Positions 23,494 through 48,575 of a DNA stretch of 48,575 nt are shown here, one piece after another. The translations under genes and the position numbers were made by a program. Where the stretch lies: sequence record SRR31156797_6029; one strand, written 5' to 3'. Position 1 is the stretch's first letter; every line of letters starts with the position of its first letter. The notes beneath the pieces are model-generated. The model was not told where the DNA came from and ran no database searches. It saw nothing but the letters and a program-made list of their open reading frames with translations.

Positions 23494-23526
23494 GGGCGGG
23501 GTTCCAAAAAAAGGAACTCCGCCTTT
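23494..23526 (+). terminator. Stem-loop between the alkaline phosphatase and YibE/F genes
   Basis: GGCGGGGTTCC-aaaaaaa-GGAACTCCGCC then TTT. Confidence 0.6.
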
Positions 23527-23550
23527 AATATATTTTTAACCCCCGAGATT

Positions 23551-24678: not shown

Positions 24679-24758
24679 CTCAGTTGTGCGTACTTGTCGG
24701 CAGTGACTTCCTTGTGCTAATTCCCCTTAAATAGGATTTTTTGCTGGAGGGAAATAGT

Positions 24759-32222: not shown

Positions 32223-32320
32223 AATGTTTTGGTGATTTTCTAGAAAAAGTCTTGATATATCTGGTTAATATAGTTATTAAGTTAATGTTATAAGTCGTGG
32301 AGTAGCCTTAGGAGGAAAAA

Positions 32321-32749: not shown

Positions 32750-32788
32750 CGGAATTTTTTATATGTCTGTCTTTTTGTCCGGGCGGAA

Positions 32789-33199
32789 CTATTTTGTCCC
32801 GGTGTTTTCGTTGCTGAAAGCTATTAGTCCTCTTTTTCCTAAATCTCTCAGAAATGAAGCTGTCGCGACTTCTGCTTCGCGGGGCAGAACCTGATATTTC
32901 TGTGCAAAACTTGTCGCTATTTTACGGACATTGTTTTTCCCGTCAATCATATCCCAGACCAGAGTTCCCATTTCATCAAGTTCTAACCTTTTTATGGGCG
33001 GAGTTCCGTCTTTCCACATCCCGAACCTCTTCGCCACATCAGCGAAAAGCGGTTTCAGCCGCAATGGATAGGAGAGCATTACCAGTCCATTTTCCGTGCG
33101 CGTTTCAGTTATATCCCGGTTCTTCAGGGGCTTGCAGGCCATGGCTTCGCCCCTGGTCATTTCCGGAATGACTGCTTTTTTCTTACTGAATAATTTCAT
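32789..33199 (-). CDS. PqqD-family (RiPP recognition element-like) protein
   Basis: ELDEMGTLVWDMIDGKNNVRKIATSFAQKY...AEVATASFLRDLGKRGLI, the PqqD winged-helix pattern L(N/D)xxGxxxWxxxDG...FLxxLxxxGLI. Confidence 0.82.
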   Translation of the reverse strand: MKLFSKKKAVIPEMTRGEAMACKPLKNRDITETRTENGLVMLSYPLRLKPLFADVAKRFGMWKDGTPPIKRLELDEMGTLVWDMIDGKNNVRKIATSFAQKYQVLPREAEVATASFLRDLGKRGLIAFSNENTGTK

Positions 33200-34079
33200 A
33201 ATTTTTGAAAATATTTTTTGCCCTGTCTTCTGGGATGATCTGCCGGGACTTAATCATTACAGCGAGAATGCGGTTACTTCCCTGTGTGTAGCGGATTTCA
33301 ATCTGTCCATATGGACGACTTTTAGAGTTAAATTTGGCAAGAGCTAATTTAGTGGCAGAAGGGCTCTTCTCCTGTCCAAACATACAGGTGGAACCTTTGT
33401 CGTATTCAAGCTCAGCTATGGAAAGTCCTAATGATTTAATATCTTCTTTGAAGAGTTCTCTGGAAAAATCACCCAGAGTGCAATCTTTGAGGATCACATC
33501 GGCAGGACTGAAACGGAAGAGTTCTATGGTCTCTGTCTGGTCTGTGAGACTAATATTGAATCTGCCGGGTTTGAATTCAAAAGATTCAAGAGCCATTGAT
33601 CCGGGGAGAGCTACTTTCATATCGTAAATCTGCCAGAGTCGTTCAGCCTTGGAATCATTGAATTTTAGACTGCTAAACAATTTTACAGCGGCATCATCGA
33701 TATGATTGTCGCATTTGCCGATAAATTGAACCAGCATAACTTTGGCAGAATTTTTACAGTAAAACATAACCCCGCGCCCTGTGGCGAGGTCTGACTGCCA
33801 ATAGAAAGCGGTAGTATTAAATTTCTTGAGCGGTGCTTTCCACGAAGAGGGCAGGACTGTGGATTCTATCTTAAGGCCAGAAGCGGATTCAATCTTTTTG
33901 GCAAGCTGCCTGAAATATGTTTTTTCCTTATATGTCCTCCCGGCATCATACCAGCGAAGTTCAATACAAGGGTATTCTCCATTATCGAGTTGCAGGAATT
34001 TCTTATCAATTCCGCTGACCTCGAAGTTGGACGGGATCGCAAAGCTGATGCCGTCCCATGCTATATTCTTAAAATCCAT
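33183..34079 (-). CDS. Hypothetical cytoplasmic protein, possibly tandem PsbP/Mog1-like domains
   Basis: ATG 34079 follows AAGGA. Overlaps the PqqD gene start. Two similar segments: WDGISFAIPSNF and YDMKVALPGSM. Confidence 0.75.
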   Translation of the reverse strand: MDFKNIAWDGISFAIPSNFEVSGIDKKFLQLDNGEYPCIELRWYDAGRTYKEKTYFRQLAKKIESASGLKIESTVLPSSWKAPLKKFNTTAFYWQSDLATGRGVMFYCKNSAKVMLVQFIGKCDNHIDDAAVKLFSSLKFNDSKAERLWQIYDMKVALPGSMALESFEFKPGRFNISLTDQTETIELFRFSPADVILKDCTLGDFSRELFKEDIKSLGLSIAELEYDKGSTCMFGQEKSPSATKLALAKFNSKSRPYGQIEIRYTQGSNRILAVMIKSRQIIPEDRAKNIFKNYEIIQ

Positions 34080-34257
34080 TATTTGTTTCCTTATTGAAAA
34101 GGCTTCCCTTCTGATTGGCAGGAAAGTCGAATAATCATATTGCTGCAAATACAATGCGGATAACCAAGCCGAAGCAAGCTTACCTAAAACATTTTCTAAT
34201 CATCCGCAAAGTTTTAATTCTTATTTAGAATTGTTTTAAATAAAGAGTTCAACTGAA

Positions 34258-36219
34258 TCAATAAGCCATTTTTCCTAATGATTTCAAGATAAGTGTGCAA
34301 CCCATGGCAAACATACCTGTTAAACCCATGCCGCAGGAGAAACCTGCCAGCAGGACCGGGGCATACTGGCGCCACATGGTTCCGTATTTTTTCTGGAAGA
34401 AATAGCGTCCGATCAAAGCTCCGGCAACTTCCAGAATAAAGCCGTGCGGCGTACTTTGCCCGAGACCTCTAACTACGCCGTAAACGAGCAGAATTGGTAG
34501 CCCCAAGGTGTTAAGTATGGCGTAAAGCACAAGTCCAAGGCTAATCCCGCCCATGACTACCGGTCCGCTAAGAGCTTGAAAGAACAGGGAGTTGCCTTCA
34601 AGGGTAGAGGTTTGCATGAGCAGGGTGTTCAGAGCCTGCAAGTGCCAGAGTTCCTGCGCGTAAGGATAGTTTGAGGATGGAATGGGCGCAAGTTGCCAGA
34701 TGAATTGTGAGAAGAGCAGGCTGGCGATCATGACTACCGGGAAAACCACAAGTTCAGCTTTGATGATACCCCGGATGGAAGTACCGGTCAGTTCAATTTC
34801 GCGGAAGTGGACAGTCGCTTCCCCGTAGTTGTGAATAGGGATCGGTGCATACCAGATTTCAATACCCTGATAGCCGAAGAATTTTGCCCCGGCGATGAAG
34901 CTTGCTTCTCGCACCAGCGGCAGGCTTACAAACTGTCCGGCAATACCTTCCATACGCGCGGTGATGTATGAGATTACCGGGGTGTAGATAAAACCGTAGA
35001 GCAGAAAGAAAATCCACGGGAAATTGGGTACCAGCAACAGGCTCATGCCTACGTAGGCAAGAGTGGAGAACACATAGATGGCGATGGATACCCAGAAGTT
35101 GATGTCTCCACGTCCTTCCGGTGGCTCGAAAAGTTTGCTCCATGACTCTCGATGCTTGGCATGTTCTCCACGGAATGATTTGACCACGTACCAGATACCG
35201 ATCAAACCGATAGCCAAACCGAGGCCGATGGAAAAACTCATGTAAAAATCAAAGTTGTTGGCAAAGACCGTTTCAACAGTCTCCATGCCCGGATGCCAGC
35301 GGTGCAGGATGCCGTGTTCATATAGAAAAGGGTTGGCGATAAAAGTAATGACGATTCCGATCAAGCCGCCGATAACAGCCCAGAAAGGCAGAACCATACC
35401 GATGAAGAACAGCCCGAGGTCAAATTGGATACCAGTAGCAACGGCCGGGAGAATTTTTTCCGTATAGGGCGTAAGTTCTACCCACGGTATTGGAATAATC
35501 CTGATCGGTTCAGTAAATAGCAATCCCGATACAGCGGGCAGCAGCACATAAATAGCACCGAAAGCCAGTCCGATGACTCCTCCTACTGAGAATACCCGCC
35601 ATTTCCAGCTGGCCTTTTTTTCCTCGGTGGATTCAGCCAAAGCCATGGTACCCAAAGCACCGACAGGGGCCATGGGAAAGGGCAGTTTTTCCACATCAGA
35701 AGTAATGCGGTAAAGAGCATACCCCAGTCCGAAATGGTCTATTCGCTGGACAATCTGCGCACCTACCAACAGCAGAATCGGTATGAGCCAGTCGCGGTGG
35801 AAGAAAGTTCGTTCAATGAGTGAATCTGATCCCGGTTGCGGGGCAACCCATGTGGGGATGAACTCGGTCAGGCCCAGCATACGTGCCGCGTCCGATTGTA
35901 CTAAATACTGTTGCCATAGCAGGCCCGAGAATGGCGAAGCCAACGCTGCCCCGGCCATGTAGTAGAGCAGGAATATTTCCTGTTGTTTCAGTTCGGTATA
36001 GGAACGTTTGGCAATCTCGGCGAAAAGAATAATGGTTACCCAGCGTGCCGCAGGGCCGATACCCTGACCAATGACCAGCTGCAGGTACATACTTCCCGGC
36101 ATCATCAGGAAGCCGATGAAGATGGCACCGACTACGGTTTTCCAGTCAAAGCCTTCTTCAAAATGGGTCGGGGTTTTTAATAGGTCCCGATATTCTTGTA
36201 GCTCTTTATCATTATGCAT
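34258..36219 (-). CDS. OPT/YSL-like polytopic membrane transporter (putative peptide transporter)
   Basis: 653 aa with roughly 14 or more hydrophobic segments, and the motif DVEKLPFPMAP, which resembles the OPT-family LxFP loop. Confidence 0.72.
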   Translation of the reverse strand: MHNDKELQEYRDLLKTPTHFEEGFDWKTVVGAIFIGFLMMPGSMYLQLVIGQGIGPAARWVTIILFAEIAKRSYTELKQQEIFLLYYMAGAALASPFSGLLWQQYLVQSDAARMLGLTEFIPTWVAPQPGSDSLIERTFFHRDWLIPILLLVGAQIVQRIDHFGLGYALYRITSDVEKLPFPMAPVGALGTMALAESTEEKKASWKWRVFSVGGVIGLAFGAIYVLLPAVSGLLFTEPIRIIPIPWVELTPYTEKILPAVATGIQFDLGLFFIGMVLPFWAVIGGLIGIVITFIANPFLYEHGILHRWHPGMETVETVFANNFDFYMSFSIGLGLAIGLIGIWYVVKSFRGEHAKHRESWSKLFEPPEGRGDINFWVSIAIYVFSTLAYVGMSLLLVPNFPWIFFLLYGFIYTPVISYITARMEGIAGQFVSLPLVREASFIAGAKFFGYQGIEIWYAPIPIHNYGEATVHFREIELTGTSIRGIIKAELVVFPVVMIASLLFSQFIWQLAPIPSSNYPYAQELWHLQALNTLLMQTSTLEGNSLFFQALSGPVVMGGISLGLVLYAILNTLGLPILLVYGVVRGLGQSTPHGFILEVAGALIGRYFFQKKYGTMWRQYAPVLLAGFSCGMGLTGMFAMGCTLILKSLGKMAY

Positions 36220-36253
36220 GTGTATATCTCGTTATGCTTGTTAACTGGAATTA

Positions 36254-38227
36254 CTAGCCGGGGAGCACTTGATAACTTTGTCCTGCGTATAGTCCGTAGA
36301 GCGCCCATGCTCCGCCCATGAGAAAATCTCCCATGATCAGGCCGAAGAAAAGGTAACGGACCCTTTTAAACAGTCCCACTCCGCCATAGCGCAGGGTCAG
36401 CTGGTTGCAGACCCAGCCGAGGAAAAAGCTGAACCAGAGGATTTTCATGGCTGAGCTGTAGGCGGTCAGGTAACCAATGGGATGCAGCGGCCACCACGGC
36501 AGTCTGTTATATGCCAGTATCAGTGCGAACATAACAACTGCCCCCACTGTGGCGAAGGTGCTTACCCAGTGTGAAGTTGCTGCGGGTTCCTGTATTATGC
36601 GTACCACGTTATCGTAGACGTTCATGGATGTGCGGGTAGCCCAGTCCAGCTGCAATTCGCGGATACCGTATTTGTAGCAGACCATGAGCATGGCCCCGAA
36701 TGAGACTATTACACCCAGTAGCAGGATGATGGTTATGCCGAGCAGGAACAATCGCTTATTTTTGATCCATTCATTGATCTTGGAACCGTGCACTAGTGAA
36801 GGCATGAGTGATTCCCTGAGGTCAACGAAAAGTATTTTTTGGCACATGGCGGTGATGGCAATTCCCACCGAGCCGAAGAATTTAGATCCGAAGATTGTAG
36901 TCACGCAGTCAATGGGGGCGGCTGTCAGGGTGAAGTAAGCGATACCGCCCTGACATATTGCCTTGGATGCTACCAGTGTGAAGACAAAGAAAGCCAGCAG
37001 AACCACCACAGCTACCAGTAGCGGGATACCGAAATATACGCACCATGCGGTGAGCAGCAGTCCGGAGACTGCGAGTCCCCAGAAAGAAAATCTAAGGGAC
37101 ATCCATTCGGCGTCACCACGTGTAGACTCTGCACCGAATGCTTCTTTAATTACCTGCTTGAGGTGCTGGCGGGCCAGCCAGATAATGAAGCAGAAAAATA
37201 CAAGATAAGCCCCGATCATCTGGGTTTCCTCGGGTCGGGTCAGGGTCGGTCCGAAGGTCACGCCCAGCGCGGAGGCGGGAATGTTCAGTCCGCCAGCACT
37301 CAGGATTCCATAGAACAATCCGCCGAGCAGAAAAAAGAACCAGAAGCTGAACGAAATCTGTCTTGAAGCCAGAAAGGCGAATCCCACAAAAGCGGGGTAA
37401 AAGTAAATTTTCAGTTTGTGGAAACCGGAGAACAACCCGGTTTTGGCAAAATATTTACCGGCCAGAATCAGAGTAGGTACTTCCGGTACCGAGGGGATGT
37501 AAAAATGCAGCCCGTTGATCAGATGCAGACAGATGCAGAATATCAGCCCGATCAGGAAGAATTTGTTACCGAGAAATGATCCGTACAACCCTTGATCCAT
37601 GGCTTCTTCCATGAAGCGAGGCAGCTGCAGCAGCGGGAAGTTCAAGCGTTCATTTTCTACCCATTGCCTGCTGAAAATATTGGTTAGGCAGAGCATCATG
37701 AAATAGCAGAGCAGGATGAATGCTCCCCACCACATGAGCGGAGTCAGCCACGAAGCCCAGGGGATGGAATTGAATATTTCAAGGTTGTCCATGAACGGAC
37801 CGCCCTTGATGCCGTTATAGAGTTGTTCCACCGCTTTGGGGTCGGTTGGATGCAGTGCCTCAGGCAGTAGCGGCTGCAGCACTTCCTTCCACCTGTTGCC
37901 GATGGTGGCAAAGTGAAAGGGCGCGGTCAGGTTGATGAAAAATGTTCTGGCCAGTCCTGTGTAGGAAATACCGGAGACAATGACCATAAGAATCCACATG
38001 GTCATCAGGTCCAGTCCGGTCAGCAACGGGTGCGAGCGCAGTAGCTTGCGATGCAGCGCGCAGATTGCGGTCAACCATGCCAGTATGAAGAACGGGGCCA
38101 GCGGGAAATGTCCCCCGGCCAGCGGAGTCGCGTTCAAGTAGGTGTTGTTGAAAGGTGTGAAAGCGCAGATGAGCAGCCCGAAGAGGGTACCCAGCAGAAT
38201 CGCTCTTTTCCTTATTCTTCCATGCAT
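36254..38227 (-). CDS. DUF6785/DUF6784-type polytopic membrane protein, related to the downstream OPT-like transporter
   Basis: 657 aa, highly hydrophobic, with IPWASWLTPL, RQWVENERLNFPL, WWPLHPIG, RYGG...F.GLIMGD. Confidence 0.72.
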   Translation of the reverse strand: MHGRIRKRAILLGTLFGLLICAFTPFNNTYLNATPLAGGHFPLAPFFILAWLTAICALHRKLLRSHPLLTGLDLMTMWILMVIVSGISYTGLARTFFINLTAPFHFATIGNRWKEVLQPLLPEALHPTDPKAVEQLYNGIKGGPFMDNLEIFNSIPWASWLTPLMWWGAFILLCYFMMLCLTNIFSRQWVENERLNFPLLQLPRFMEEAMDQGLYGSFLGNKFFLIGLIFCICLHLINGLHFYIPSVPEVPTLILAGKYFAKTGLFSGFHKLKIYFYPAFVGFAFLASRQISFSFWFFFLLGGLFYGILSAGGLNIPASALGVTFGPTLTRPEETQMIGAYLVFFCFIIWLARQHLKQVIKEAFGAESTRGDAEWMSLRFSFWGLAVSGLLLTAWCVYFGIPLLVAVVVLLAFFVFTLVASKAICQGGIAYFTLTAAPIDCVTTIFGSKFFGSVGIAITAMCQKILFVDLRESLMPSLVHGSKINEWIKNKRLFLLGITIILLLGVIVSFGAMLMVCYKYGIRELQLDWATRTSMNVYDNVVRIIQEPAATSHWVSTFATVGAVVMFALILAYNRLPWWPLHPIGYLTAYSSAMKILWFSFFLGWVCNQLTLRYGGVGLFKRVRYLFFGLIMGDFLMGGAWALYGLYAGQSYQVLPG

Positions 38228-38244
38228 CTGAGGAATCCTTATAT

Positions 38245-41200
38245 TTAAAGGTCTGCAAGCTTTTTGCTAGTATTCAGTCCGGTAAAACCAAAGGCCATCA
38301 TTTCCGGTACTTTTTCGCGGAAGCTCTTTTGTTTTTCCGGATCAAGTGAACGCCAGACTAAGAATTGCTTCCTGATGGCGTTGATGAAGTCTTTGTTAAG
38401 TCGTTTCCATGCTCCAATCTCTCCAGACTCGCGAGTGATGAACAGAACTGCTTCAAGGAATTGTGGATGTGCCTTGGCTGGTCTGAAGCGGAGTTCGACC
38501 ATCTGTTTTACACCGAAATCAAAGGGAGCCAGCCAGACCCGCACGTTGAAACGGAAACAGGTGATGTGGTCCGGGCAGCCTTCCAGCAGGTCACAGACCG
38601 ATTCCGGCAAAGGTTCCTGACTGAAGTTAACTTCGATTTCTGAAGTCGAAAACAATCCATGGGAGACTTCAGTATGCGATTCAAGGTATTCAAGCAGGAA
38701 GCCACCTGCATCTTGTTGCTCGGCATGTTTGAGCAGGAAAGGCAGGGGGGCCTCGATGGTGTTGGTGTCGGTATCCGGCATTTTCCAGGAACGGTTAACG
38801 TCCGGGATGGCTATGTTTGCCGCTACCTTGGAGGGATAAATGACCGAGATAAGGGTTACGGCAATGACCAGCAGCATTGCAGCTACTCCTGCCATAGACG
38901 AATAGTTGGCGGTCATGCCTGCCCAGAGAGGAGTCCCGGCCAGCAGGCCCGAAGCTGTCTGAGCTATCAGGTAACCGACCACCACACTGATTACTGCAAA
39001 GGCGATGGCCTCGGCAATGAACAGGAATGAAACGTGGGTCGGGGCCATACCGATAGAAGTATAGACTGCGATTTCTTTTTTGCGTTCGTAAACACTGGTA
39101 ATCATGGTGTTAAGAACGATCAGAGCGGAAATGATCAATGGGATCATTATGTTGCCCATTCCCGAATAATTCATGGTGTCCGAGGACTGGCAAATGTAGG
39201 TGCCGCTTGTGTCGCAGGCGAATATAGGCAGTCCGTACCGGTCAGTCATGTTGTCTACTGTTTCCGTGGAGAACTTTCCTGATACAGGTGCGATTGCCAC
39301 TGCCTTGAGGTTTCCGCCCATGGCCATGAGAGTTTCATAGGGAATGATGGCGGTAACTTCTCCGGGCACATGGGTATAGCGTCCTTGAAAGGTGTCGATA
39401 TCTTCGCCGGATTCAATGGCTTCAGCCTCAACTTCGCTCAGTTCCTGTGCTGCGGCGGAGGGGAAGATGACCGGAGTCATAGGTTCGCCGTCAAGGTCAG
39501 TGTGTTCGCTGAATTTTTTGCCGTCAAAGATACCTGTGAGCGTGAATTTGCTGCCCCACACATTCACCATATCTCCGGCGGATGCACCGAGGCGGGAGGC
39601 CATCTTTTGTGAAAGCAAGATCTGGTTGGTCTTGTTGGGTGCAAGCCATTTGCCATCTACAAGGATATTATCAATGCCGCTGACATGCGGTTCCATGGCT
39701 CCAAGCCCCACGAGCCCTTTGACTTCTTCCTGTTTGTTACCGAAGCTGACCGGAGTTACTGCGGATGTTGTCTTGTCCTTCAACTCCATCCAACCGCGCG
39801 GAGCCACAATGCCGTTTTCATCAAAATCGTTGCTGACAATGCCCAGTGTTTCTCGGGGTAGGTCGTGCCAGCCTAAATTTTTCATGAACAGGCCGTGGTA
39901 GGGCATGTTGTCGCTGAATTTTACGTATGTATGCTCGCGCAGTGATTTTACCGCGGTAAAGCTCATGATGGTGAAAGTCAGGATGGTCAAGGTCAAACAG
40001 GTCAGGAAAGTCCTGAGCTTTCTGCGGCGCAGGTTGCTGACCCCGATAACAAAGGCAGAAGTGAAGGCCTTCCATTTGCTGATTTCCGAGGTCTGGGTTT
40101 TATGTGCCCGCTGCTGGAGCAGGATCATTTCTTTTTCAAAGCGGAAGAAAATGATCAGCGAAACCATGACTGAGAGTCCGAGAATAAAGAAGGCCAGAAT
40201 TACAACCATGGGGCTGTAAGTCAGTTCAAATGCCGGATGTACGGAGTAGATGACCGCGATAACTGCCGAAAGGATCGCCAGAAATCCGATGATTCTTTTG
40301 TGGATATCCGCGAACGAAAAGATCAGCCTTTCCATGCAGTATGCAAAAGGAATAAACAGGGCGATGTAAAAGAGAACACCGACTAGTACGTCCTTTTGGG
40401 TCTGGTCCACGTCAAGGTAGACTTTGGAGGCCAGCGCCCACGCACTGCGGGCATTGGTCATAAAATCGTCATAACGGCGCTCTTTCCATGCTGTTTCAGC
40501 ATCTGCGAGGGCCTTGGTGCCTTTTTGCTCCAGATTTCTGATCTGCTGGTTTACGATTCCATGTGATTCAAGGTTTTTGATACGGGGATCAAGCAGGGTC
40601 CACATATCCTTTGCCGCGCGATAGTCGGTAGCCGGGATAATGGGCCATTCCTTGAGGTTGTATCCTTTACCTGCCGGATCATTAGGTTTGGATTGGATGA
40701 GGATCATTTTCCGATTCAGAACCGAATCAGAGAGAGTCATCTTCAGCGGAACATCCGGCTCAAGAAAGACACTGGCAATGGTTGATGATCGGGTATCAAT
40801 ACGGCTGTACCAGTAATGCATAGGCGTAGCATCGCGGGTACCGTCCAGTACTTCTACCTTGGTCATATAGCGGAAGGTACGTGGGGTCAGCAGATCGAAC
40901 AGGGTTGTCTGACGGCAGCCGAACATGACCAGCTTGGTTTCCATATCCAGCCTGCGCATTTTCAGCCTGTAGGAATTTTTTCCGGTCTGTTCTTTATCAA
41001 TGGCCCAGATAATCCTGCCGTCATCATTGTACTTATAGCCTTCGATAATCAGCTTGGACTGGACCAGCTTTTTAGAGGCAACTCCTTTGTACTTGAAGTC
41101 TCCTTCTGAATCGGACAGGGCGTAAAATCTGGTTTTACCCTGAAAAGCCATGAATACGGCTTCGGGTGCGGGCTGGTCCGCGAAAAGTTCACCCTGACGG

Positions 41201-43113
41201 ATAAAACGGGCCTTGCCGTTGACCATGGCATAGCCTTTACGCGGCAGCTTGGAGGTCAAGGGGCCTTCGCTGTTTGAAATCTTACGAATCAGACCTTCGG
41301 TCAGTTCGGCTTGTTTGTCGATGTTATCCCAGTTGACATTTTCAACGGTATCAAAAGGGGTGCCCCAATATTCCCGTCCGTCGTTTACTGTGGCAAAGGT
41401 GAACCCGAGTTTACCGGACATGGTGGCTACTTCACTGCTGAATTGCGGTTTGTCGAGCAGCCATGTCTGCCAGGGGCGGGTGCGGTCCGGGCGCAGGGTG
41501 TCTTTGTACATCCCGTCTGTGCCAGTCAGTTTTTCCACTTCCGGTACAGCGTCTTCAAGGATGTCATTGATGCGGGAAAATGTGCGTGAAAGATTGATTC
41601 TCGGGCGGAGTTCGTAGAACCAGCCTTCTCCAAAGGCCCCGACGCCTTCTCCATGGCTGGAAAGATGCAGGGATACGGCGCAGACCATTTCTTTGGAGCG
41701 TACGATCTTGCGTAACTCACGGGCACTTTTGACTGCTGTGAGTTGTTGTTTGATGTCCTGTTTGGTATTGAGGACTTTTTCCTTTACTTGAGGAAAAAGG
41801 TCCTTAACCGCTGCCATTTCTTCAGAAGGCAGGGTGGAGTAATCAGTTTTCCATGAAATACGGCGCAGGAGTTTACGTTTGTCATCCAGCTTGGTGATAG
41901 CGTCCTGATCAGCATTTTCCTGCAACCTGAGCTGCATGAGCTTTTTGCTGACAATGTCCACTTCATCTTTAATCTGGTTCTTCAGGGTTTCGTAGAGCAA
42001 AGCGAACAGTTTTGGATTCTCAATGGCAAGTTTTGTTGCCAGTGGATTATCCAGTTCCAGTCCGTCAAGGATTTTGGATGCATCATTTTTTTTATTGCGT
42101 AGCTCCACCTTGATCTTTTTGAGAGTTTTGCTCTTTCCGGAAACAGCGGATGCATATTCCCTTATACCGCGCAGGGACTGGCCATGTCCAGTTGTTGCCA
42201 GTAGTAGTACTGAACGCTTAGGCGGATTTGCAGCCATCTTTTTACCGATTTCAAGGAGCGATGCAATGGAAAGAGCTTCATCAGCTCCCGGTGAATTACC
42301 CATGACGTAGGCAGAGCTGTCGTAAAAAGCTTCAATTACGATCAGTTCTTCACTCATTTCCGGGTCACTGCCTTGAATCATGCAGTAGACATTTTCTGCT
42401 TCAATACGTTCCCATTTGCTGTGGGATTTAAGCTCTCCAGATTCGGCAATAAGTTTATTTCCGATTCCTGCATCAAAGCCCAGTTCATTGAGTGCTTCTT
42501 CAGCACTCATGTAGTAGCGGGGAAAATCCAGAGGTGAAAGTTCGAGTTTTTCTTCGAAAAAGCCTTTCAAGGTTGGTCCATTATCAACATAGATAAGGGC
42601 CGATGCTCCGAGGCTGGCTGCATTTAGCCAGTTTTTGCCGGAATCTATGTCCATAAGCACAATGGCATCTTTGACCGGAAGTCCGTTAAAGTCATCAAGA
42701 CTTCCTTTTCCCACATAGATTACCGGACCGCTTAAACCTTCCGCAGGTGTTGCTGGCGGGGAAATAGCATTGAATTTAGCCGGTTTGATACTGATCTGTT
42801 TTCCATTTGATATACTGAAAACAGTTTTGGAAACAGTCATAGCCGGAGCGAGAAAAAGGTGCTTCCCGGTTTTGAAATCACCCAGCTCCTCAAATTTCAT
42901 TTCAATATAATCCGCAGCTCTTCTTGCTCCCGGAGAACCAAAAGAACGGTCGCCGAAAGATGCAAGATCTGTGATGGTCTGCTGGATGGATTCTGCGGAA
43001 CAATAAGCCTTGCCGGGTGTTCCTGCGCAGAACATCAGTAGTGCTGCCAGCAGAAATATTACAATTCTGCTGTGGCGGTGCGGAAATCTATTATTAGATG
43101 ACAGTATGGACAT
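38245..43113 (-). CDS. Giant fusion: signal peptide, M28-peptidase-like and PA domains, TM bundle, MacB-like periplasmic domain and FtsX permease domain
   Basis: DRSFGSPGARRAADYI (M28 N-terminus), PVIYVGKG...DAIVLMD (PA), ENV...AFYDS...PGADE, NLRRRKLRTFLT (MacB TM1 lead-in), SVYERKKEIAVYTSIG...EAIAFA (FtsX). Confidence 0.82.
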   Translation of the reverse strand: MSILSSNNRFPHRHSRIVIFLLAALLMFCAGTPGKAYCSAESIQQTITDLASFGDRSFGSPGARRAADYIEMKFEELGDFKTGKHLFLAPAMTVSKTVFSISNGKQISIKPAKFNAISPPATPAEGLSGPVIYVGKGSLDDFNGLPVKDAIVLMDIDSGKNWLNAASLGASALIYVDNGPTLKGFFEEKLELSPLDFPRYYMSAEEALNELGFDAGIGNKLIAESGELKSHSKWERIEAENVYCMIQGSDPEMSEELIVIEAFYDSSAYVMGNSPGADEALSIASLLEIGKKMAANPPKRSVLLLATTGHGQSLRGIREYASAVSGKSKTLKKIKVELRNKKNDASKILDGLELDNPLATKLAIENPKLFALLYETLKNQIKDEVDIVSKKLMQLRLQENADQDAITKLDDKRKLLRRISWKTDYSTLPSEEMAAVKDLFPQVKEKVLNTKQDIKQQLTAVKSARELRKIVRSKEMVCAVSLHLSSHGEGVGAFGEGWFYELRPRINLSRTFSRINDILEDAVPEVEKLTGTDGMYKDTLRPDRTRPWQTWLLDKPQFSSEVATMSGKLGFTFATVNDGREYWGTPFDTVENVNWDNIDKQAELTEGLIRKISNSEGPLTSKLPRKGYAMVNGKARFIRQGELFADQPAPEAVFMAFQGKTRFYALSDSEGDFKYKGVASKKLVQSKLIIEGYKYNDDGRIIWAIDKEQTGKNSYRLKMRRLDMETKLVMFGCRQTTLFDLLTPRTFRYMTKVEVLDGTRDATPMHYWYSRIDTRSSTIASVFLEPDVPLKMTLSDSVLNRKMILIQSKPNDPAGKGYNLKEWPIIPATDYRAAKDMWTLLDPRIKNLESHGIVNQQIRNLEQKGTKALADAETAWKERRYDDFMTNARSAWALASKVYLDVDQTQKDVLVGVLFYIALFIPFAYCMERLIFSFADIHKRIIGFLAILSAVIAVIYSVHPAFELTYSPMVVILAFFILGLSVMVSLIIFFRFEKEMILLQQRAHKTQTSEISKWKAFTSAFVIGVSNLRRRKLRTFLTCLTLTILTFTIMSFTAVKSLREHTYVKFSDNMPYHGLFMKNLGWHDLPRETLGIVSNDFDENGIVAPRGWMELKDKTTSAVTPVSFGNKQEEVKGLVGLGAMEPHVSGIDNILVDGKWLAPNKTNQILLSQKMASRLGASAGDMVNVWGSKFTLTGIFDGKKFSEHTDLDGEPMTPVIFPSAAAQELSEVEAEAIESGEDIDTFQGRYTHVPGEVTAIIPYETLMAMGGNLKAVAIAPVSGKFSTETVDNMTDRYGLPIFACDTSGTYICQSSDTMNYSGMGNIMIPLIISALIVLNTMITSVYERKKEIAVYTSIGMAPTHVSFLFIAEAIAFAVISVVVGYLIAQTASGLLAGTPLWAGMTANYSSMAGVAAMLLVIAVTLISVIYPSKVAANIAIPDVNRSWKMPDTDTNTIEAPLPFLLKHAEQQDAGGFLLEYLESHTEVSHGLFSTSEIEVNFSQEPLPESVCDLLEGCPDHITCFRFNVRVWLAPFDFGVKQMVELRFRPAKAHPQFLEAVLFITRESGEIGAWKRLNKDFINAIRKQFLVWRSLDPEKQKSFREKVPEMMAFGFTGLNTSKKLADL

Positions 43114-43132
43114 TAACGGGTGCCTCCGGTGA

Positions 43133-43867
43133 TCAGGCCATGCGGATGCAGCCCACGTCGATGTTGAGCTGGTCGCGGTGTTCGATTTTTTTGATCAGTC
43201 CGTCTTCGATCCAGACAACCCGGTCAGAGGCGTTGAGCATTTTATAGTCGTGAGTTGCGGTGATGATGGTCACCCCGCGTTCCTTGCTCAGCTCATTCAT
43301 TAGTTTAATGATTTCCTCTCCGGTGGAAAGGTCGAGGTTCCCGGTTGGTTCGTCCGCAAGGATGATGGCCGGGTCGTTGGCCAGCGATCTTGCAATGGCC
43401 ACGCGCTGCTGCTGGCCTCCGGAAAGTTCCTGCGGTTTGTGGTTGTAGCGTTTGTGGAGTCCGACGAGATCGAGCAGTTCAATGCCTTTGGCGACTGCCG
43501 CGTCGTTGTGCACCCCGGCGAAGATCATGGGCAGGGTTATATTTTCCAGCGCGGTCATTACCTGAATAAGGTTGAAGGTCTGGAAGATGTAGCCGATTTT
43601 GCGGTTACGCAGCCAGGCTAGTTCAAAGGCATCCAACTGGGCGATATCCACTTCATCGATATAGACCTTGCCTTCTGATGGTTTATCCAGTCCCCCGATC
43701 ATGTTGAAGAGGGTGGATTTACCGGATCCGGAAGGTCCCATGATGGAAAGGTATTCCCCGGCATAGATTTCAAGATCCACTCCTTTGAGGGCCTGAACAT
43801 CAGTGTTGCCGAGTTTGAAATTGCGTTTAACTCCGGTCACCCGGACGATGGTGTGCTGGTCGGCCAT
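43133..43867 (-). CDS. ABC transporter ATP-binding protein, LolD/MacB type
   Basis: [51 protein letters not shown]. Confidence 0.95.
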   Translation of the reverse strand: MADQHTIVRVTGVKRNFKLGNTDVQALKGVDLEIYAGEYLSIMGPSGSGKSTLFNMIGGLDKPSEGKVYIDEVDIAQLDAFELAWLRNRKIGYIFQTFNLIQVMTALENITLPMIFAGVHNDAAVAKGIELLDLVGLHKRYNHKPQELSGGQQQRVAIARSLANDPAIILADEPTGNLDLSTGEEIIKLMNELSKERGVTIITATHDYKMLNASDRVVWIEDGLIKKIEHRDQLNIDVGCIRMA

Positions 43868-43932
43868 AACTCTCGCCTTTTTATATAATTTAAGTTGTTG
43901 TTCTGTTTTAAATTTATTCGTCTGTTTGGAGT

Positions 43933-44610
43933 TTATTCTTCGGTCCGCATGGCCTCGATGGGGCGCATGCGTGCAGCAATAAAAGCCGGGTAAAGTACAC
44001 CCAGCAGGCTTAAGCCGAAGCCCACGCCAATGGAGTAAAGGAGTGACATACTGACCTCATCAAGGGGCAGCATGGTCAAAGCATCGAATCCGAAGCGGAG
44101 CATGCCCACTAGGATAGCGATGATTGCTCCGAACATGGAGCCGAGCAATGCTCCGGCTGTCCCCTGCATGGATGCTTCGAGCAGAAATAGGCGCAGCACG
44201 AAGCTGTCCAGTGCGCCAAGGCATTTCATGGTCCCGATTTCGCGGAACCGTTCGGTAACGGCCATCAGCTGGGCGTTGATGATACCCACTGTGCAGACCA
44301 ATAGTGAAAGGATGACAATCCAGCGTTCCTTGGCACTACCTCCAGGTTCATAGCCGGTTTTGTCCAGTATCTTGACCAGGCTGGAGTCGCCTGAATGGTA
44401 GAGTCCGCTGGAAATATCCGCCCCCACGAGAACGTAAGCCAGAAAGGAGACCGCCAGAATTAAACTGGTCACGGTTACCATGTTTCGTAAGAACCTTGAT
44501 TTCAGGCTTTTCAGGCTGATTTCAAAAGATTTTTTAAAGGGCAGAACTACTTGCGCGGCGATGTCCGGCTGCGCGTTCTGAGCTTGGAATGGAATTCTAT
44601 TTTTCGACAT
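43933..44610 (-). CDS. Minimal FtsX/MacB-family ABC permease (four TMs, almost no periplasmic domain)
   Basis: KSLKSRFLRN, GIINAQLMAVTERFREIGTMKCLGA, LYPAFIAARMRPIEAMR. Confidence 0.88.
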   Translation of the reverse strand: MSKNRIPFQAQNAQPDIAAQVVLPFKKSFEISLKSLKSRFLRNMVTVTSLILAVSFLAYVLVGADISSGLYHSGDSSLVKILDKTGYEPGGSAKERWIVILSLLVCTVGIINAQLMAVTERFREIGTMKCLGALDSFVLRLFLLEASMQGTAGALLGSMFGAIIAILVGMLRFGFDALTMLPLDEVSMSLLYSIGVGFGLSLLGVLYPAFIAARMRPIEAMRTEE

Positions 44611-44839
44611 GTCTTGCTCGGTAGATATGAATGTATCTGAGTCTCATGATTCGACCCCGTGAACCATGAGTGAATAATTAGCGTAAGCTATTTATAAATA
44701 ACTGAAACGGGCTGAAATGCAAAGGGAAAATGCAAAGATTGGCACTACTTCGCCATTAGAAACCCCAATTGTGAGGGATATACAGCAAAATATGCCATCA
44801 ATGCATTACGATGTGGTAATTTTGATTACAAATGTGTAA

Positions 44840-45625
44840 TTAAAATATGTTCCGGATGTCTTTAACGCGCAGTCCGGAAGTATTGTTTATTTTACCGAGC
44901 AGGTAATGGAGGAAAAGTTGGGATGTTTTATTCATCCGCTGATGGTGGAGCATGAATCCTGCACAGCCTGATTTTACAGCATCAATCATCAGGGATTGCA
45001 GGGTTTTCAACCCTTGTTCAGGAGTTGATCCTTTTACTGTGTGCAGGTCAATATTAACCGGAACGTCTGGTAGATCCTGAGGCGGTTGCGGGGAAACATT
45101 GGTGCTTCTTGACATCGCATTAAAGCCTAGTTCAACAAGACTGTCCATTGTTTCTGCTGAGCAGCGGTTCCATGGCGGGGTGAATATGGGACTGAAATGA
45201 TCGCCCAGCAGTTTGCCGAGCTTGTCTTTGCCCCGGCTCAGTTCTCCGGTAATTATATCTTTATCACGCGAGGGCCCGAACTCGAATTTTTTGCCCGACT
45301 GCTCGTGATTTATGTGTCGGTAACCGTGCTGGTGTAGACACCATAGATTTAAGTCCGGTCCTAATTCAGTAAGTAGCGCATCTCGGCGCTGTTCATTCAG
45401 CCATGCCGGAACGACCGCTAATGCCAGCGGGGTCTTGTGCTTTTGAAATGCGTCAATCATGGCGGAAAGTTGTTTGCCTGGGTAACCGATATCGTCAGCC
45501 CTGAAGAAGACTTCACAACCATCTTGCGGAATGGCTTTGTTGAAGTCATCCCACCAAATATCAAAGGATTCTGTGAGGGTGGAAAGATGATTTTTCCAGA
45601 AAGCTGAAACGGGTCTGCCGGACAT
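44840..45625 (-). CDS. Polysaccharide deacetylase (NodB/CE4-like)
   Basis: FFRADD, LAVVP, HQHGYRH, FTPPWN, MLHH. TAATG coupling to the upstream gene. Confidence 0.85.
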   Translation of the reverse strand: MSGRPVSAFWKNHLSTLTESFDIWWDDFNKAIPQDGCEVFFRADDIGYPGKQLSAMIDAFQKHKTPLALAVVPAWLNEQRRDALLTELGPDLNLWCLHQHGYRHINHEQSGKKFEFGPSRDKDIITGELSRGKDKLGKLLGDHFSPIFTPPWNRCSAETMDSLVELGFNAMSRSTNVSPQPPQDLPDVPVNIDLHTVKGSTPEQGLKTLQSLMIDAVKSGCAGFMLHHQRMNKTSQLFLHYLLGKINNTSGLRVKDIRNIF

Positions 45626-46782
45626 TAAATTTTCCTTAAATTTCTGATTAATTCTGCCGATTTGCTCGCGCCTTCCAGATCAATGCCATGGTTTGTCTTG
45701 TTGCGGTTTTGGTTGAGCAGATTACACATGGTGGCGGTCATTGCTGATCGGTTTGTAGAATCAAGAATTTCCAGTGGGATATATTTTGCAATCCTTTCCG
45801 CGCGCATACGTTGCTCATGATTCTGGGCAAAAGGCAGTACTGCTGTCGGAATACATGAAGTCAGGATGTCCATACAAGTATTATATCCTGCCATGGAGAT
45901 CATTGCATCCCCGGCAGTGAGTAGATCAGTAAAATCTGTTGCAAAGCGCTGGATGGTTATATTTTCGTGTACTTTTGCTGTGGCGTAGAGTGCATCGAAT
46001 TTATCATTATCCAGAAATGGTCCGCTTAGTATTAGCAGTTTGTTGTTTTGCTGTTGTAGATCGATGAAAGATTCAAGTGCTGCCTGCATCAACGGTCCGC
46101 CAACCTTGCCGCCCCCCGCACTGGCGATGAGCAGCTTTTCGTCCGTTTTTATATCCAAGCTTTCACGTATTTTATCGCGTACGTTGTCCGCTGGTTTGCG
46201 GGCCGCAAATCCAGTGTACTCACATGGTATTTCAATCTGCTTAAAAGCCTGAAAGGTTTCATCCAGTGCTGCGATCTTGGGATCGGCATGGATGAGCAGC
46301 AGATCGAAATATTTATTCAGGTATTTTACAACACGGGCTTCATGCTTGCCTCCGTCGTCGCGTTCCACGAGGATATCTCGCAGGGAACACACAACCTTTA
46401 CATCACCGAACTGACCCTCTTTTATAGCATCGAGAACAGGCAGCAGCTCAAAACGAAAGGCCTTGCGTCCGAAGGGAAACAGTTCAATGAGGAAAACATC
46501 AGGCTTTTCCTCTTCAAATATTTTGAAAAGGGTAGTGCTACGTTCTTCCTTGACCTCTTCAAGTTTGCGGTCTTCGTCAGTAGGCATGAGTCCACCGAAA
46601 TTTTCATCCATGCACAGACCGGGCAACTGACGGTATTCCACATTTGGCGGCAGCGGTTGATTCGGGCGTTCGCCACCTGCCACGAAAAGAATTTCTTCTT
46701 TATCTAAAGCCTTAGCGATTTCAAGGCTGCGGAAAAAATGTCCCATTCCCAGCACGTGCTGGCAGTAATGAATTATTTTCAT
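45625..46782 (-). CDS. GT-B glycosyltransferase (GT28 C-terminal-like)
   Basis: YCQHVLGMGH, ELFPFGR, CSLRDIL, SAGGG, SMAGYNT, EQRMRA. Confidence 0.88.
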   Translation of the reverse strand: MKIIHYCQHVLGMGHFFRSLEIAKALDKEEILFVAGGERPNQPLPPNVEYRQLPGLCMDENFGGLMPTDEDRKLEEVKEERSTTLFKIFEEEKPDVFLIELFPFGRKAFRFELLPVLDAIKEGQFGDVKVVCSLRDILVERDDGGKHEARVVKYLNKYFDLLLIHADPKIAALDETFQAFKQIEIPCEYTGFAARKPADNVRDKIRESLDIKTDEKLLIASAGGGKVGGPLMQAALESFIDLQQQNNKLLILSGPFLDNDKFDALYATAKVHENITIQRFATDFTDLLTAGDAMISMAGYNTCMDILTSCIPTAVLPFAQNHEQRMRAERIAKYIPLEILDSTNRSAMTATMCNLLNQNRNKTNHGIDLEGASKSAELIRNLRKI

Positions 46783-47396
46783 AACTCGTCATTCAACCTT
46801 TCAATGGAAAATTCGCCGTTCCAGTTCAGCCAGTGCAATCTGCGTTTTTTCAGCAGCTTTCTTTCTTCGGGCATGAAGTCATGGTCCAGAAGTTTATAGA
46901 TCACGGATTTAATTACGCCCTCGTGAGCCACGGCAAGAATCTTGATTTCGTCTTTGTCTATAGTTCTGATAATTTCGTTTACTCCGTCTTCAAGAGCCTT
47001 GAATCCGCGGTCGGCACATTCAATACGGTTTTCACCGCTGTCAGGAGTAAAATACCAACCCTTGGTAACTTCTTCATCAAGTTTGCCGGGAAATTTTGCA
47101 TGCAGTTCGTCCATGGTCAGACCGGACCACTTACCCCAATCCTGCTCGCGTAGACCAGGAAGGTGTAGCGTGGGCAGCTCCAAGCCTTCGGTGATGATAT
47201 TTGCGGTCTCGATTGTCCGACCAAGATCACTGGTCAGCACAGCATCGAAGGTTTGCGGCTCAAGAGTCTTCTTCCAGCCTGCAGCCAGTTCCCGTCCGTA
47301 TTTTGTCAGCGGGGAATTAAAGTGGCCCTGAATACGGCCTTCCTCATTCCACTCAGTTACTGAGTGGCGGATAAATGCGATTTTTACGGATTTCAT
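46779..47396 (-). CDS. Histidine phosphatase (PGM/CobC family)
   Basis: RHSVTEWN...QG, SDLGRTIET, LREQDWG, VAHEG. TGATG coupling. Confidence 0.9.
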   Translation of the reverse strand: MKSVKIAFIRHSVTEWNEEGRIQGHFNSPLTKYGRELAAGWKKTLEPQTFDAVLTSDLGRTIETANIITEGLELPTLHLPGLREQDWGKWSGLTMDELHAKFPGKLDEEVTKGWYFTPDSGENRIECADRGFKALEDGVNEIIRTIDKDEIKILAVAHEGVIKSVIYKLLDHDFMPEERKLLKKRRLHWLNWNGEFSIERLNDEL

Positions 47397-48520: not shown

Positions 48521-48575
48521 GGCTCCCTGTGTAGTTTGACTCAGTGAAGCTTAATAAAAGTTTTAGGAGAGTCCA

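Follow-up and report, generated by a model that had tools for sequence, protein, structure and literature searches.

A conserved but unstudied membrane system appears to be encoded by seven adjacent genes of a marine sulfate-reducing bacterium. Judged from the sequence, it would combine a MacB/FtsX-type ABC motor, a dead peptidase-like head, two OPT-fold proteins, one of which (g4) is more distantly linked to OPT, and two small cytoplasmic partners. The seven genes, g1 to g7, very probably constitute one functional system. Our favored reading, to which we give a probability of roughly 45%, is that one inner-membrane system captures and imports a periplasmic oligomer with the aid of ATP. No published description of the seven-gene system was found in the literature searched, consistent with the original prediction that no characterized system has this composition.

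The genes lie in a window of 48,575 nucleotides, the whole stretch of DNA analyzed (sequence record SRR31156797_6029). The list of open reading frames places all seven on the minus strand with the coordinates given below. Successive gaps between g1 and g5 are 65, 19, 17 and 34 nt, g5 and g6 are 178 nt apart, and the end of g6 overlaps the start of g7 by 17 nt, in agreement with the expected arrangement of seven co-oriented genes with gaps mostly below 70 nt and one of about 180 nt. The reading frame of g6 (33183-34154) gives 323 aa from a TTG start, which reduces the gap from g5 to 103 nt, or 298 aa from the ATG at 34079; the median length of its homologues is 298 aa. Pfam and NCBIfam agree with the families originally assigned to g1, g2, g3 and g7. 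The extent of the cluster was less well judged, as all seven genes are present but the block runs on upstream into four co-oriented glyco-genes, u1 to u4.

The ABC component is of the type VII, MacB-like kind, as had been proposed. The permease g1 (43933-44610, 225 aa) matches FtsX in Pfam (3.6e-15) and the MacB/LolCE C-terminal families in NCBIfam (about 1e-12). Its hydropathy profile has four hydrophobic segments, with TM1 and TM2 separated by only about 30 residues, and we regard it as a 'mini' permease that, in contrast to those of known type VII systems, lacks a periplasmic domain. The ATPase g2 (43133-43867, 244 aa) matches ABC_tran (1.9e-35, Pfam), with intact Walker A, signature, Walker B-Glu and H-loop motifs, and in the PDB it matches MJ0796 (2.5e-68) together with MacB and LolD. 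The best NCBIfam match is LolD (6.4e-68), with MacB at 2.6e-64; because no equivalog cut-off is reached, g2 is an ATPase of the MacB/LolD/FtsE type and not LolD, MacB or FtsE itself.

The largest protein, g3 (38245-43113, 1622 aa), is a fusion. In Pfam it matches Peptidase_M28 (7.6e-10) and FtsX (6e-12), together with PA at 0.0034, under the cut-off, and MacB_PCD at 7.7e-6, its 26.8 bits falling just short of the 27 required. The FtsX part matches MacB (3.9e-8), YtrF and LolC in the PDB. There are eight hydrophobic segments in total, four of them in the C-terminal module. From our reading of the protein and a conservation profile of 58 sequences, g3 would begin with a signal or anchor, followed by a periplasmic head of about 870 residues made up of a weak PA region, an M28-like region, a charged helical insert and a beta-rich region. 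Three extra TM segments would then lead into a MacB-type permease, whose periplasmic core domain would lie between TM1 and TM2-4. A conserved cytoplasmic tail of about 180 residues would close the chain. The four-TM FtsX-type permeases and the ATPase with its intact motifs are shared with type VII systems, and g1 and g3 resemble LolC and LolE as a heteromeric permease pair; a MacB-type core domain, just under the cut-off in g3, may be a further common trait. A periplasmic enzyme or pseudoenzyme partner also has parallels in FtsEX-EnvC and YbbAP-TesA, as these are presented in the available part of PMC12646458. In g3, however, the partner domain is very large and fused to the permease, with the extra TM segments and conserved tail as further differences. 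The cluster also departs from type VII systems in having no gene for an adaptor or outer-membrane duct, and in that its genes are locked to those of permeases with the OPT fold and of the Mog1/PsbP-like and PqqD-family proteins.

As originally supposed, the M28-like domain of g3 is a pseudo-peptidase. We scored the site from an alignment to the Aeromonas/Vibrio proteolytica aminopeptidase (AAP, PDB 1amp/2anp) at the equivalents of His97, Asp99, Asp117, Glu151 and Glu152. We take the di-zinc ligands of AAP to be His97, Asp117, Glu152, Asp179 and His256, and the general base to be Glu151. Among 58 homologues of g3 the position of His97 is never His (Phe in 46, Ala in seven, Pro in three and Ser in two), and that of Glu152 is never Glu (Ala in 34, Gly in 17, Ser in four, and otherwise Trp, Asn or Asp). 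The Glu151 position is occupied by His in 43 of the 58; the equivalent of Asp99 is kept in all 58 and that of Asp117 in 54. We therefore reject the head as a genuine family M28 peptidase, two zinc ligands being missing in every homologue. Pseudo-peptidases of the PA-M28 type exist, the transferrin receptor being an example. The head retains the M28 fold signal and a PA-like insert, and differs from AAP in the above substitutions, in its fusion to an ABC permease, and in a large insert that breaks the fold. This insert (residues ~330-470) is poorly conserved and highly charged, and on our reading would be helical.

Both of the ~655-aa polytopic proteins had been labeled OPT-like. The label holds for g5, on the basis of its relatives and fold; for g4 the family profile makes it a weaker assignment, and a direct HMM match is found in neither. 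The protein g5 (34258-36219, 653 aa) has no match above threshold in Pfam or NCBIfam, and no Pfam family even at E ≤ 1, while among 44 relatives 21 reach Pfam OPT with an E of 1 or less (the lowest 1.3e-17). We accordingly place g5 in the OPT superfamily and fold and not in PF03169. Its AF2 model (pLDDT 89.1) superposes over nearly its full length on the barley Yellow-Stripe transporter HvYS1 (PDB 7wsr/7wst; Foldseek to 7wsr_A, E 6.5e-12, probability 1.00, TM 0.65/0.70), but with an identity of just 13-14%. HvYS1 is the sole chain matched at E ≤ 0.001, the runner-up having an E of 9e-3. The most conserved gene of the set is g5, with 76-85% identity across sulfate-reducer orders for full-length matches, indicating strong purifying selection. 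At 50% identity its family numbers about 1,000 representatives, and in some relatives PDZ, beta-propeller or FGE-sulfatase-like domains for binding are inserted. Unlike OPT/Yellow-Stripe-like transporters, g5 is as a rule encoded with an ABC motor.

Its neighbor g4 (36254-38227, 657 aa) matches DUF6785 (2.6e-168, 561.1 bits) and DUF6784 (8e-35, 119.5 bits) in Pfam, both above the cut-off; no mention of DUF6785 was found in the literature searched. The OPT family HMM (PF03169) gave no match to g4, and HMM-to-sequence searches turned up no support for an OPT kinship. Alignment of the g4 and g5 family profiles with hhalign gave an E of 4e-4 and a probability of 35% over 558 collinear columns, and the Atlas feature neighbors of g4 are 'peptide transporter'/OPT at 0.77-0.78, which we treat as a lead only. 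These comparisons hint that g4, which diverges from the OPT/Yellow-Stripe-like transporters still further than g5, and g5 itself are probably OPT-superfamily paralogues, though very distant ones. HvYS1 works as a homodimer and imports by a proton-coupled elevator mechanism (PMC9691689), and by analogy with this dimer a g4-g5 pair is plausible.

The remaining two genes encode the small soluble proteins. No Pfam family was matched by g6 (33183-34079, 298 aa), and no signal peptide, TM or hydrophobic segment was found in its sequence, from which we predict that it is cytoplasmic. Its AF2 model (pLDDT 89.7) is related by Foldseek to TplEi/Tli4 (5h7z_B, E 2.2e-5), and also to Mog1, PsbP and RseB, with TM scores of 0.46-0.57 for single-domain targets and about 0.3 for the whole chain, at 9-10% identity. 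In the model g6 is two Mog1/PsbP-like alpha/beta domains in tandem, each an alpha-beta-alpha sandwich as in Mog1, PsbP and the T6SS immunity proteins TplEi/Tli4; it differs from TplEi/Tli4 in its predicted location and in having no T6SS context. The other protein, g7 (32789-33199, 136 aa), matches PqqD (PF05402, 5.5e-10, 39.9 bits against a cut-off of 23.4) over its C-terminal ~65 residues, preceded by an N-terminal extension of ~70 residues that is conserved in an alignment of 21 homologues. Lasso and SCM PqqD chaperones were weakly matched in NCBIfam, every PqqD subfamily falling under its cut-off. The view of g7 as an orphan member of its family is upheld, since a Pfam scan of the window (28 further open reading frames at E ≤ 1e-5, and the seven genes and their neighbors at E ≤ 0.01 or 0.001) revealed no RiPP enzyme family. 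Thus g7 resembles the RiPP recognition elements in its C-terminal domain, but it has no RiPP enzyme or precursor nearby, carries the extension, and is paired with g6.

The genes g6 and g7 adjoin in 28 of 29 loci and in all four relocated copies. Their binding score is 0.56 against 0.02 for the best control, in a range where passes are often wrong: passes at 0.60 or less came from only five of 78 solved complexes, but from all four passing mismatches (of 180). The runs share at least 76% of contacts, with a partner pLDDT of at least 72, and the mark for binding was reached by 51 of the 78 solved complexes and two of 108 mismatched pairs. The score suggests, faintly, that g6 and g7 may bind each other.

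That the seven genes belong together, as the original prediction held, is borne out by their distribution. A tblastn comparison of the window proteins with 80 genome loci found g1-g5 in order wherever the flank allows. We then called genes with custom HMMs in the 43 Desulfobacterota loci whose flanks reach 7 kb or more to either side of g4. The order g1<g2<g3<g4<g5 on one strand is kept in 40 of these; g3 and g5 are each present in 42, g1 and g2 in 40, and g6 and g7 in 29. Of 301 genomes sampled from the phylum 17 gave DUF6785, and of 14 controls none. With no more than seven candidates scored per genome, g6 is found in eight of the 301, all of them DUF6785-positive (8/17 versus 0/284), leaving nine DUF6785-positive genomes with no g6 match among those candidates. 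Among 80 metagenome loci anchored on distant g5 relatives, 36 had at least 6 kb upstream, and g3 lies near the OPT-like g5 relative in 29 of these, directly upstream in 24; no g3 was found nearby in seven. Within these loci and genomes, the HMM and neighborhood searches that had been suggested as a check speak for co-occurrence. The gene order is shuffled in distant loci, as in g6 g7 g1 g2 g3 g5 or g3 g5 g6 g7 g1 g2, and some of the ABC ATPases labeled 'g2' there may be unrelated. Of 19 such loci just five have g4. Two features had been overlooked. The conserved core across distant lineages is g3 plus g5, and g6-g7 is a detachable module sometimes encoded away from the cluster, an adjacent g6-g7 pair being present elsewhere in four genomes whose cluster lacks both.

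In the uptake reading that we favor, g1, g3 and two copies of g2 would assemble into a heteromeric ABC motor of type VII (MacB/LolCDE/FtsEX-like). By turning over ATP, g2 would set in motion the periplasmic MacB-type domain of g3 and its PA/M28-like head. The head, having lost its di-zinc site, would act as a receptor or clamp and not as an enzyme, taking up a periplasmic oligomer, most likely peptide-like, and passing it to g5. The second, DUF6785-type permease g4 would assist g5, and the two may pair via scaffold domains in the style of the HvYS1 homodimer, with an elevator movement of g4/g5 carrying the cargo inward. The cytoplasmic g6-g7 pair would bind either the cargo or the machine itself on its cytoplasmic side; both this role and the g4-g5 pairing we infer. 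Physical coupling of the motor to the permeases is rather more probable than its absence, net import falls a little short of an even chance, and a peptide-like cargo is held more loosely still. To our knowledge each characterized OPT transporter is a proton symporter that acts alone, and few studies have dealt with those of prokaryotes. Type VII systems such as MacAB-TolC, LolCDE, FtsEX-EnvC and YbbAP-TesA expel, extract or activate (PMC12646458) and do not feed an importer, so that both the coupling and its direction would lack precedent. It is possible, though doubtful as a whole, that the machine is a hybrid primary/secondary transporter of an undescribed kind, using ATP and proton-motive force together for oligomer uptake. 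The dead-peptidase receptor would let the motor mechanically load or gate the OPT-fold elevator pair, with the Mog1/PsbP-PqqD proteins as receiver. If physical, the ABC-OPT genetic lock would be a new way to couple an ABC motor to a secondary transporter, and would give a first functional handle on DUF6785/DUF6784 and the unnamed g5 family. Related loci occur in the cultivable hosts Solidesulfovibrio, Desulfovibrio inopinatus and Maridesulfovibrio, so the question is open to genetics.

Against the uptake reading, the glycosyltransferase block often found upstream would agree equally well with a glycoconjugate or a peptide. A glycosyltransferase/phosphatase/DUF2334 block, missed in the original prediction, usually lies directly upstream in Desulfobacterota, and the machine in this group may be tied to its product. 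Here the block (u1-u4, 44840..48520, minus strand) is a lineage-specific companion outside the core. By Pfam it encodes a deacetylase-like DUF2334 protein (u1), a GT28_C-like glycosyltransferase (u2), a histidine phosphatase (u3) and a GT4 glycosyltransferase (u4). The system might then export or extract a cell-made glycoconjugate or glycolipid built by u1-u4, the OPT-fold proteins taking it across the inner membrane and the ABC motor extracting it or passing it on in the periplasm in the manner of LolCDE or YbbAP. Consistent with this, 24 of the 43 loci, from several orders, have u1 and u2 immediately upstream and co-oriented (27 have them anywhere in the locus). Genes for a STELLO-like glycosyltransferase and for DUF7796 separate u1 from g1 in some loci, and in the closest genome a further GT4 and a further GT28_C-like gene precede u4. 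Sub-threshold NCBIfam matches of u4 include BshA, MshA, monoglucosyl-diacylglycerol synthase and GlcNAc-phosphatidylglycerol synthase. However, u2 and u4 are each found in only one of 19 distant loci still keeping g3 and g5, a spacer with its own conserved element parts u1 from g1, and DUF2334-type proteins, over the cut-off in 82 of 301 genomes, are too widespread in the phylum to be system-specific at the family level. The characterized OPT members are, as far as we know, importers. In favor of export, the characterized type VII systems covered by the available part of PMC12646458 all act outward or on membrane-embedded substrates. Overall we judge export of a glycoconjugate to be unlikely, while the strongest competitor to uptake.

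Slightly less likely again is a regulator like FtsEX-EnvC, in which the motor would switch the dead M28/PA head to activate or restrain a separate envelope hydrolase, with the OPT-fold proteins recycling the fragments. A dead enzyme joined to an FtsX-type permease parallels FtsEX with EnvC (dead LytM), PcsB and RipC, in what is available of PMC7668044 and PMC10694151. The charged, putatively helical insert in the M28 fold would suit such a switch, and the window also encodes an MltA lytic transglycosylase, at a distance of 21 kb. Yet related loci have no conserved hydrolase gene with the cluster, and the close conservation of g5 suggests that the permease is the functional center.

The idea that the ABC genes, the two transporter genes and the PqqD gene are unrelated neighbors is already disfavored and very improbable: promoter-like and terminator-like sites are no more frequent than chance and g6-g7 can lie far from g1-g5, but the conserved order, the retention of the set in shuffled order in distant lineages and the confinement of g6 to DUF6785-positive genomes all speak against it. 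Least probable of all is a RiPP biosynthesis or export cluster with g7 as its leader-peptide recognition element, which the PqqD and chaperone matches of g7 might suggest, but the window Pfam matches include neither a radical SAM protein, a cyclase or a protease nor any other RiPP enzyme family, such enzymes are not recurrent in related loci, and g7 always accompanies the non-enzymatic g6.

The gap between u1 and g1 is 229 nt and contains two direct copies of CTTTGCATTT with a 13-bp period (44715..44737, minus strand), located about 105-127 nt upstream of the g1 start. The element is unique in the window, with 0.03 expected by chance. It is conserved in nine of nine Maridesulfovibrio loci while the remaining spacer diverges, and it is a candidate promoter or regulator site for g1-g7.

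All seven ORFs of the cluster lie on the minus strand of the window, in the place and common orientation given by the original prediction. The first, g1 (43933-44610, 225 aa), is an FtsX protein, and g2 (43133-43867, 244 aa) is a MacB/LolD/FtsE-type ATPase with intact ATPase motifs, to which MJ0796, MacB and LolD are the closest proteins of solved structure. These are followed by g3 (38245-43113, 1622 aa), with a weak PA domain, Peptidase_M28, a borderline MacB_PCD and FtsX, then g4 (36254-38227, 657 aa), assigned to DUF6785+DUF6784, g5 (34258-36219, 653 aa), g6 (33183-34154) and g7 (32789-33199, 136 aa), assigned to PqqD. The assignments come from Pfam and NCBIfam and agree with the families named beforehand for g1, g2, g3 and g7; g5 and g6 have no family match in either scan. 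Read from a TTG codon g6 has 323 aa, and from the ATG at 34079 it has 298 aa, which is the median length of its homologues. The intergenic gaps from g1 to g6 are 65, 19, 17, 34 and 178 nt in order, with a 17-nt overlap between g6 and g7. The closest database proteins are from Maridesulfovibrio, with 93% identity, and identities of 94-97% are found in related loci. We regard g1-g7 as a type VII ABC system whose partners are without precedent. A literature search on DUF6785/DUF6784, OPT, FtsX, MacB and M28, with most subscription-journal papers outside its scope, found no description of the gene combination, as had been anticipated for a system of such composition.

A profile of g4 located 471 loci in species-representative genomes, and the best 80 of these, all with Desulfobacterota titles, were fetched. 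Searched by tblastn with the window proteins, these 80 have the same order of g1-g5 wherever the flank suffices. Near-full-length matches outside the genus have identities of ~76-85% for g5 and 69-84% for g2, with 55-62% for g4, 51-63% for g1, 45-53% for g3, 38-49% for g7 and 21-29% for g6. Purpose-built HMMs were then run on all ORFs of the 43 Desulfobacterota loci where g4 has 7 kb or more of flanking sequence on each side, and these detected g3 and g5 in 42 loci each, g1 and g2 in 40 each, and g6 and g7 in 29 each. The order g1<g2<g3<g4<g5 on one strand is found in 40/43; the exceptions are L017, where g1-g3 are not nearby, and L043 and L044, which have truncated genes. At a separate locus in a Maridesulfovibrio MAG (L009 10001-13900) g4 is split into two ORFs of 439 and 262 aa and g5 is shortened to 570 aa, which may be due to a frameshift, a pseudogene or an assembly error.

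More distant relationships were examined in 80 metagenome loci anchored on g5 relatives. The alignment of 44 g5 sequences had no conserved stretch, and the search profile was a narrower alignment, headed by a sequence with 38% identity to g5. Thirty-six of the loci have 6 kb or more of upstream sequence; a giant protein of g3 type is present in 29 of the 36, and in 24 it is encoded immediately upstream in the same orientation. In the 19 loci that have 7 kb or more on each side we find g3 in 15, g2 in 9 (a label that may include unrelated ABC ATPases), g6 and g7 in 8 each, g1 in 6 and g4 in 5. The universal core is g3 plus g5, and the remaining genes are frequent companions. The gene orders include g6 g7 g1 g2 g3 g5, g6 g7 g1 g2 g4 g3 g5, g3 g5 g6 g7 g1 g2 and g3 g5 g6 g7 g2. 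That the set is retained across distant lineages in shuffled order is a classical indication of functional coupling.

In an even sample of the phylum DUF6785 is over cut-off in 17 of 301 genomes, and in none of 14 control genomes. The g6 profile matches eight of the 301, all of them DUF6785-positive (8/17 vs 0/284), with at most seven candidates scored per genome so that misses are possible. Four genomes that lack g6 and g7 at the cluster (those of L028, L018, L014 and L078) encode g6 elsewhere, and in all four g7 adjoins it on the same strand, once together with c11, a ~205-aa exported protein. In one complete genome the relocated pair lies ~0.77 Mb from the main cluster. These relocated pairs, and the confinement of g6 to DUF6785-positive genomes, indicate that g6-g7 is a module that can be detached from the cluster yet stays faithful to the system.

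Hydropathy places one hydrophobic segment at the N-terminus of g3, three between residues 909 and 988, and a further four within the FtsX module. In our reading an outside head of ~870 residues would lead through a three-helix hairpin region into a MacB-type permease, followed by a cytoplasmic tail. The conserved tail of ~180 residues contains a WLAPFDFG block, and its cytoplasmic placement is likewise a reading of the hydropathy. The head aligns with the Aeromonas aminopeptidase (AAP; best match 2anp, 7.7e-5), and among 58 g3 homologues Asp99 is kept in 58 and Asp117 in 54. In contrast, the His97 position is occupied by F in 46, A in 7, P in 3 and S in 2, and the Glu152 position by A in 34, G in 17, S in 4, and by W, N and D. 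The Glu151 position is His in 43/58. In the numbering of AAP, His97, Asp117 and Glu152 are zinc ligands of M28 enzymes and Glu151 is the general base. Since both the His97 and Glu152 positions are substituted across the homologues the canonical di-zinc site has been lost, which supports the proposal that the head is a pseudo-peptidase domain. The CA_C2195 protein (PMC4000134) was considered and set aside, as it belongs to a different metallopeptidase-like family.

A phmmer search of 1.84 billion representatives gave 1008 relatives of g5 at E ≤ 0.001. Pfam OPT is matched by 21 of 44 full-length relatives (26-51% identical) at E ≤ 1, the best at 1.3e-17; g5 itself has no Pfam match in the same scan. 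An AlphaFold2 model of g5 made from the 44-relative alignment has a pLDDT of 89.1 and a pTM of 0.90. Comparing this with the PDB using Foldseek, only two chains match at E ≤ 0.001, and both are barley Yellow Stripe 1 (HvYS1; 7wsr_A, 6.5e-12, TM 0.65/0.70), a likeness of fold. The next match has E 9e-3 and TM 0.10. HvYS1 is described in the accessible text of PMC9691689 as a homodimeric, proton-coupled, elevator-type importer. Searches of PDB sequences with g4 and with g5 gave nothing meaningful. The two proteins align with each other at equivalent positions by BLASTP (E 0.065), and by hhalign over 558 collinear columns (E 4e-4, probability 35%), which brings the NER(M)NFPLL and EKLPFPMA motifs into register. 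No significant match came from HMM-to-sequence searches of one family against the other. In the Atlas, a g4 homologue has language-model neighbours in 'peptide transporter'/OPT clusters with values of 0.77-0.78; these fall short of the 0.9 mark and count as a lead. From these comparisons g4 probably, not certainly, has the OPT fold. Of the paired OPT-like transporters originally predicted, g5 is supported by its fold and g4 is a probable member. Longer relatives of g5 (811-1083 aa; P0126, P0130, P0132, P0134, P0147, P0150 and P0151) have domains inserted near g5 residue 540, these being Reg_prop or WD40 beta-propellers, PDZ, or an FGE-sulfatase-like domain.

The model of g6 (pLDDT 89.7) comprises two Mog1/PsbP-like domains, and hydropathy finds no hydrophobic segments. 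Its best structural matches are the T6SS immunity proteins TplEi/Tli4 (2.2e-5), with which it shares a domain fold although the whole-chain TM is just ~0.3; single domains match Mog1 and PsbP with target TM of 0.46-0.57. In g7 the PqqD domain lies on the C-terminal side of a conserved extension of ~70 residues. A predicted g6-g7 complex scored 0.56 against 0.02 for the best control, with at least 76% of contacts shared between runs and a partner pLDDT of at least 72. The mark of this test is reached by 51/78 solved complexes and 2/108 mismatches, and passing scores of 0.60 or below include only 5/78 solved complexes vs all four passing mismatches (of 180). The prediction thus lends weak support to binding of g6 by g7. 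No RiPP enzyme family was found among Pfam matches (E ≤ 1e-5) on the 28 other window ORFs of at least 120 aa, four of which are matchless. A convergent gene (32321-32749, plus strand, 142 aa, no Pfam or NCBIfam match) lies beside g7 in 9/9 Maridesulfovibrio loci, and also in L016 with 46% identity.

The families, folds, lost catalytic residues and co-inheritance are observed, and the reading to which we commit is one of ATP-assisted capture and import, for which we infer the contacts, the direction and the cargo. A motor of g1, g3 and two copies of g2 would move the dead PA/M28 head, which would bind a periplasmic oligomer and present it to g5. A second permease would be provided by g4, perhaps forming a dimer, and g6-g7 would act at the cytoplasmic face. 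A bolder possibility, that g1-g7 make up a hybrid primary/secondary transporter, is tentative, with a probability of roughly 0.3. Every characterised OPT protein is to our knowledge an importer, HvYS1 included, and this favours import. So do the position of g5 as the most constrained gene of the set, the PDZ, beta-propeller or FGE-sulfatase-like binding domains inserted in its relatives, and the occasional presence of peptidase genes (M32, S49) as neighbours. Against import, the type VII ABC systems known so far are described in PMC12646458 as working outward or serving as switches, and a block of glycosyltransferase genes fits a self-made glycoconjugate.

That block lies upstream of g1 on the minus strand, and comprises u1 (DUF2334), u2 (GT28_C-like), u3 (histidine phosphatase) and u4 (GT4). 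In the 43 Desulfobacterota loci the HMMs find u1 and u2 in 27 each, u3 in 24, u4 in 23 and c11 in 16, and in 24 loci both u1 and u2 lie upstream in the same orientation. Of the 19 distant loci, one has u2 and one has u4. The surroundings past the window end were taken from the genome of the closest relative (G001), where u4 is preceded in the same orientation by another GT4 gene (420 aa) and another GT28_C-like gene (388 aa) (L161 1612-4040, minus strand). The block thus has at least six genes in that relative, and the window ends before the additional pair. Co-occurrence of DUF2334 with the system is uninformative at family level, as it is over cut-off in 82/301 genomes.

Within the 229-nt spacer between u1 and g1 there are two copies of the direct repeat CTTTGCATTT (44715-44737), unique in the window. 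It is kept in 9/9 Maridesulfovibrio loci while the rest of the spacer has diverged, which suggests that g1-g7 may be under their own regulated promoter. In our own reading the conserved upstream block is not a sigma-54 promoter, as its GG and GC elements stand two bases too far apart in the aligned loci. A promoter and terminator scan of 32000-48575 gave counts no greater than shuffled expectation, and Rfam gave zero matches at gathering score in the whole window.

Additional neighbours occur in other bacterial orders. Between g5 and g6 many loci have c11, with no Pfam match (L027 14048-14674 and 16 further). The cluster in the window is without it, and a homologue lies ~0.76 Mb away in the closest genome (G001:C1:1063415-1063960); other genomes have up to three copies. 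We reject c11 as a core part, given several copies per genome and its location elsewhere in Maridesulfovibrio. In loci of Desulfobacterales and Desulfocapsaceae (L027 15977-19950, L067 13998-17079, and similarly L021, L022, L045, L052, L061, L063 and L075) the cluster adjoins or encloses genes for an ABC exporter of ~840 aa (ABC_membrane with a split ABC_tran) and for a cNMP-binding protein, and the genes after g7 often encode a STAS protein and a kinase of anti-sigma type (HATPase_c_2). Two Desulfopila loci have a Peptidase_M32 (Taq-type carboxypeptidase) gene between u1 and g1 (L047 1905-3455, and the same position in L050). Unlabelled recurrent neighbours of the distant loci include DUF1559/pilin-like, S49 peptidase, HEPN, lectin-like, SBP_bac_1, GrpE and TPR proteins; no consistent functional theme is shared among such neighbours in the distant and Desulfobacterota loci, and the largest cluster of them is an artefact of antisense ORFs over g5.

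Elsewhere in the window, Pfam matches point to amino-acid ABC transporters, an Rnf operon, phosphatases and regulators. The Rnf-type operon (14755-21643, minus strand) encodes RnfC-like, RnfD and FMN-binding RnfG proteins, two Rnf-Nqr membrane subunits and a 702-aa Fe-S/flavin oxidoreductase, and is preceded by a gene for a class III multihaem cytochrome c. Genes of phosphate-scavenging type lie within 25 kb of the cluster, at 8717-10342 (minus strand) and 21950-25436 (plus strand), and encode a 5'-nucleotidase, an alkaline phosphatase, a YibE/F membrane protein and a class B acid phosphatase.
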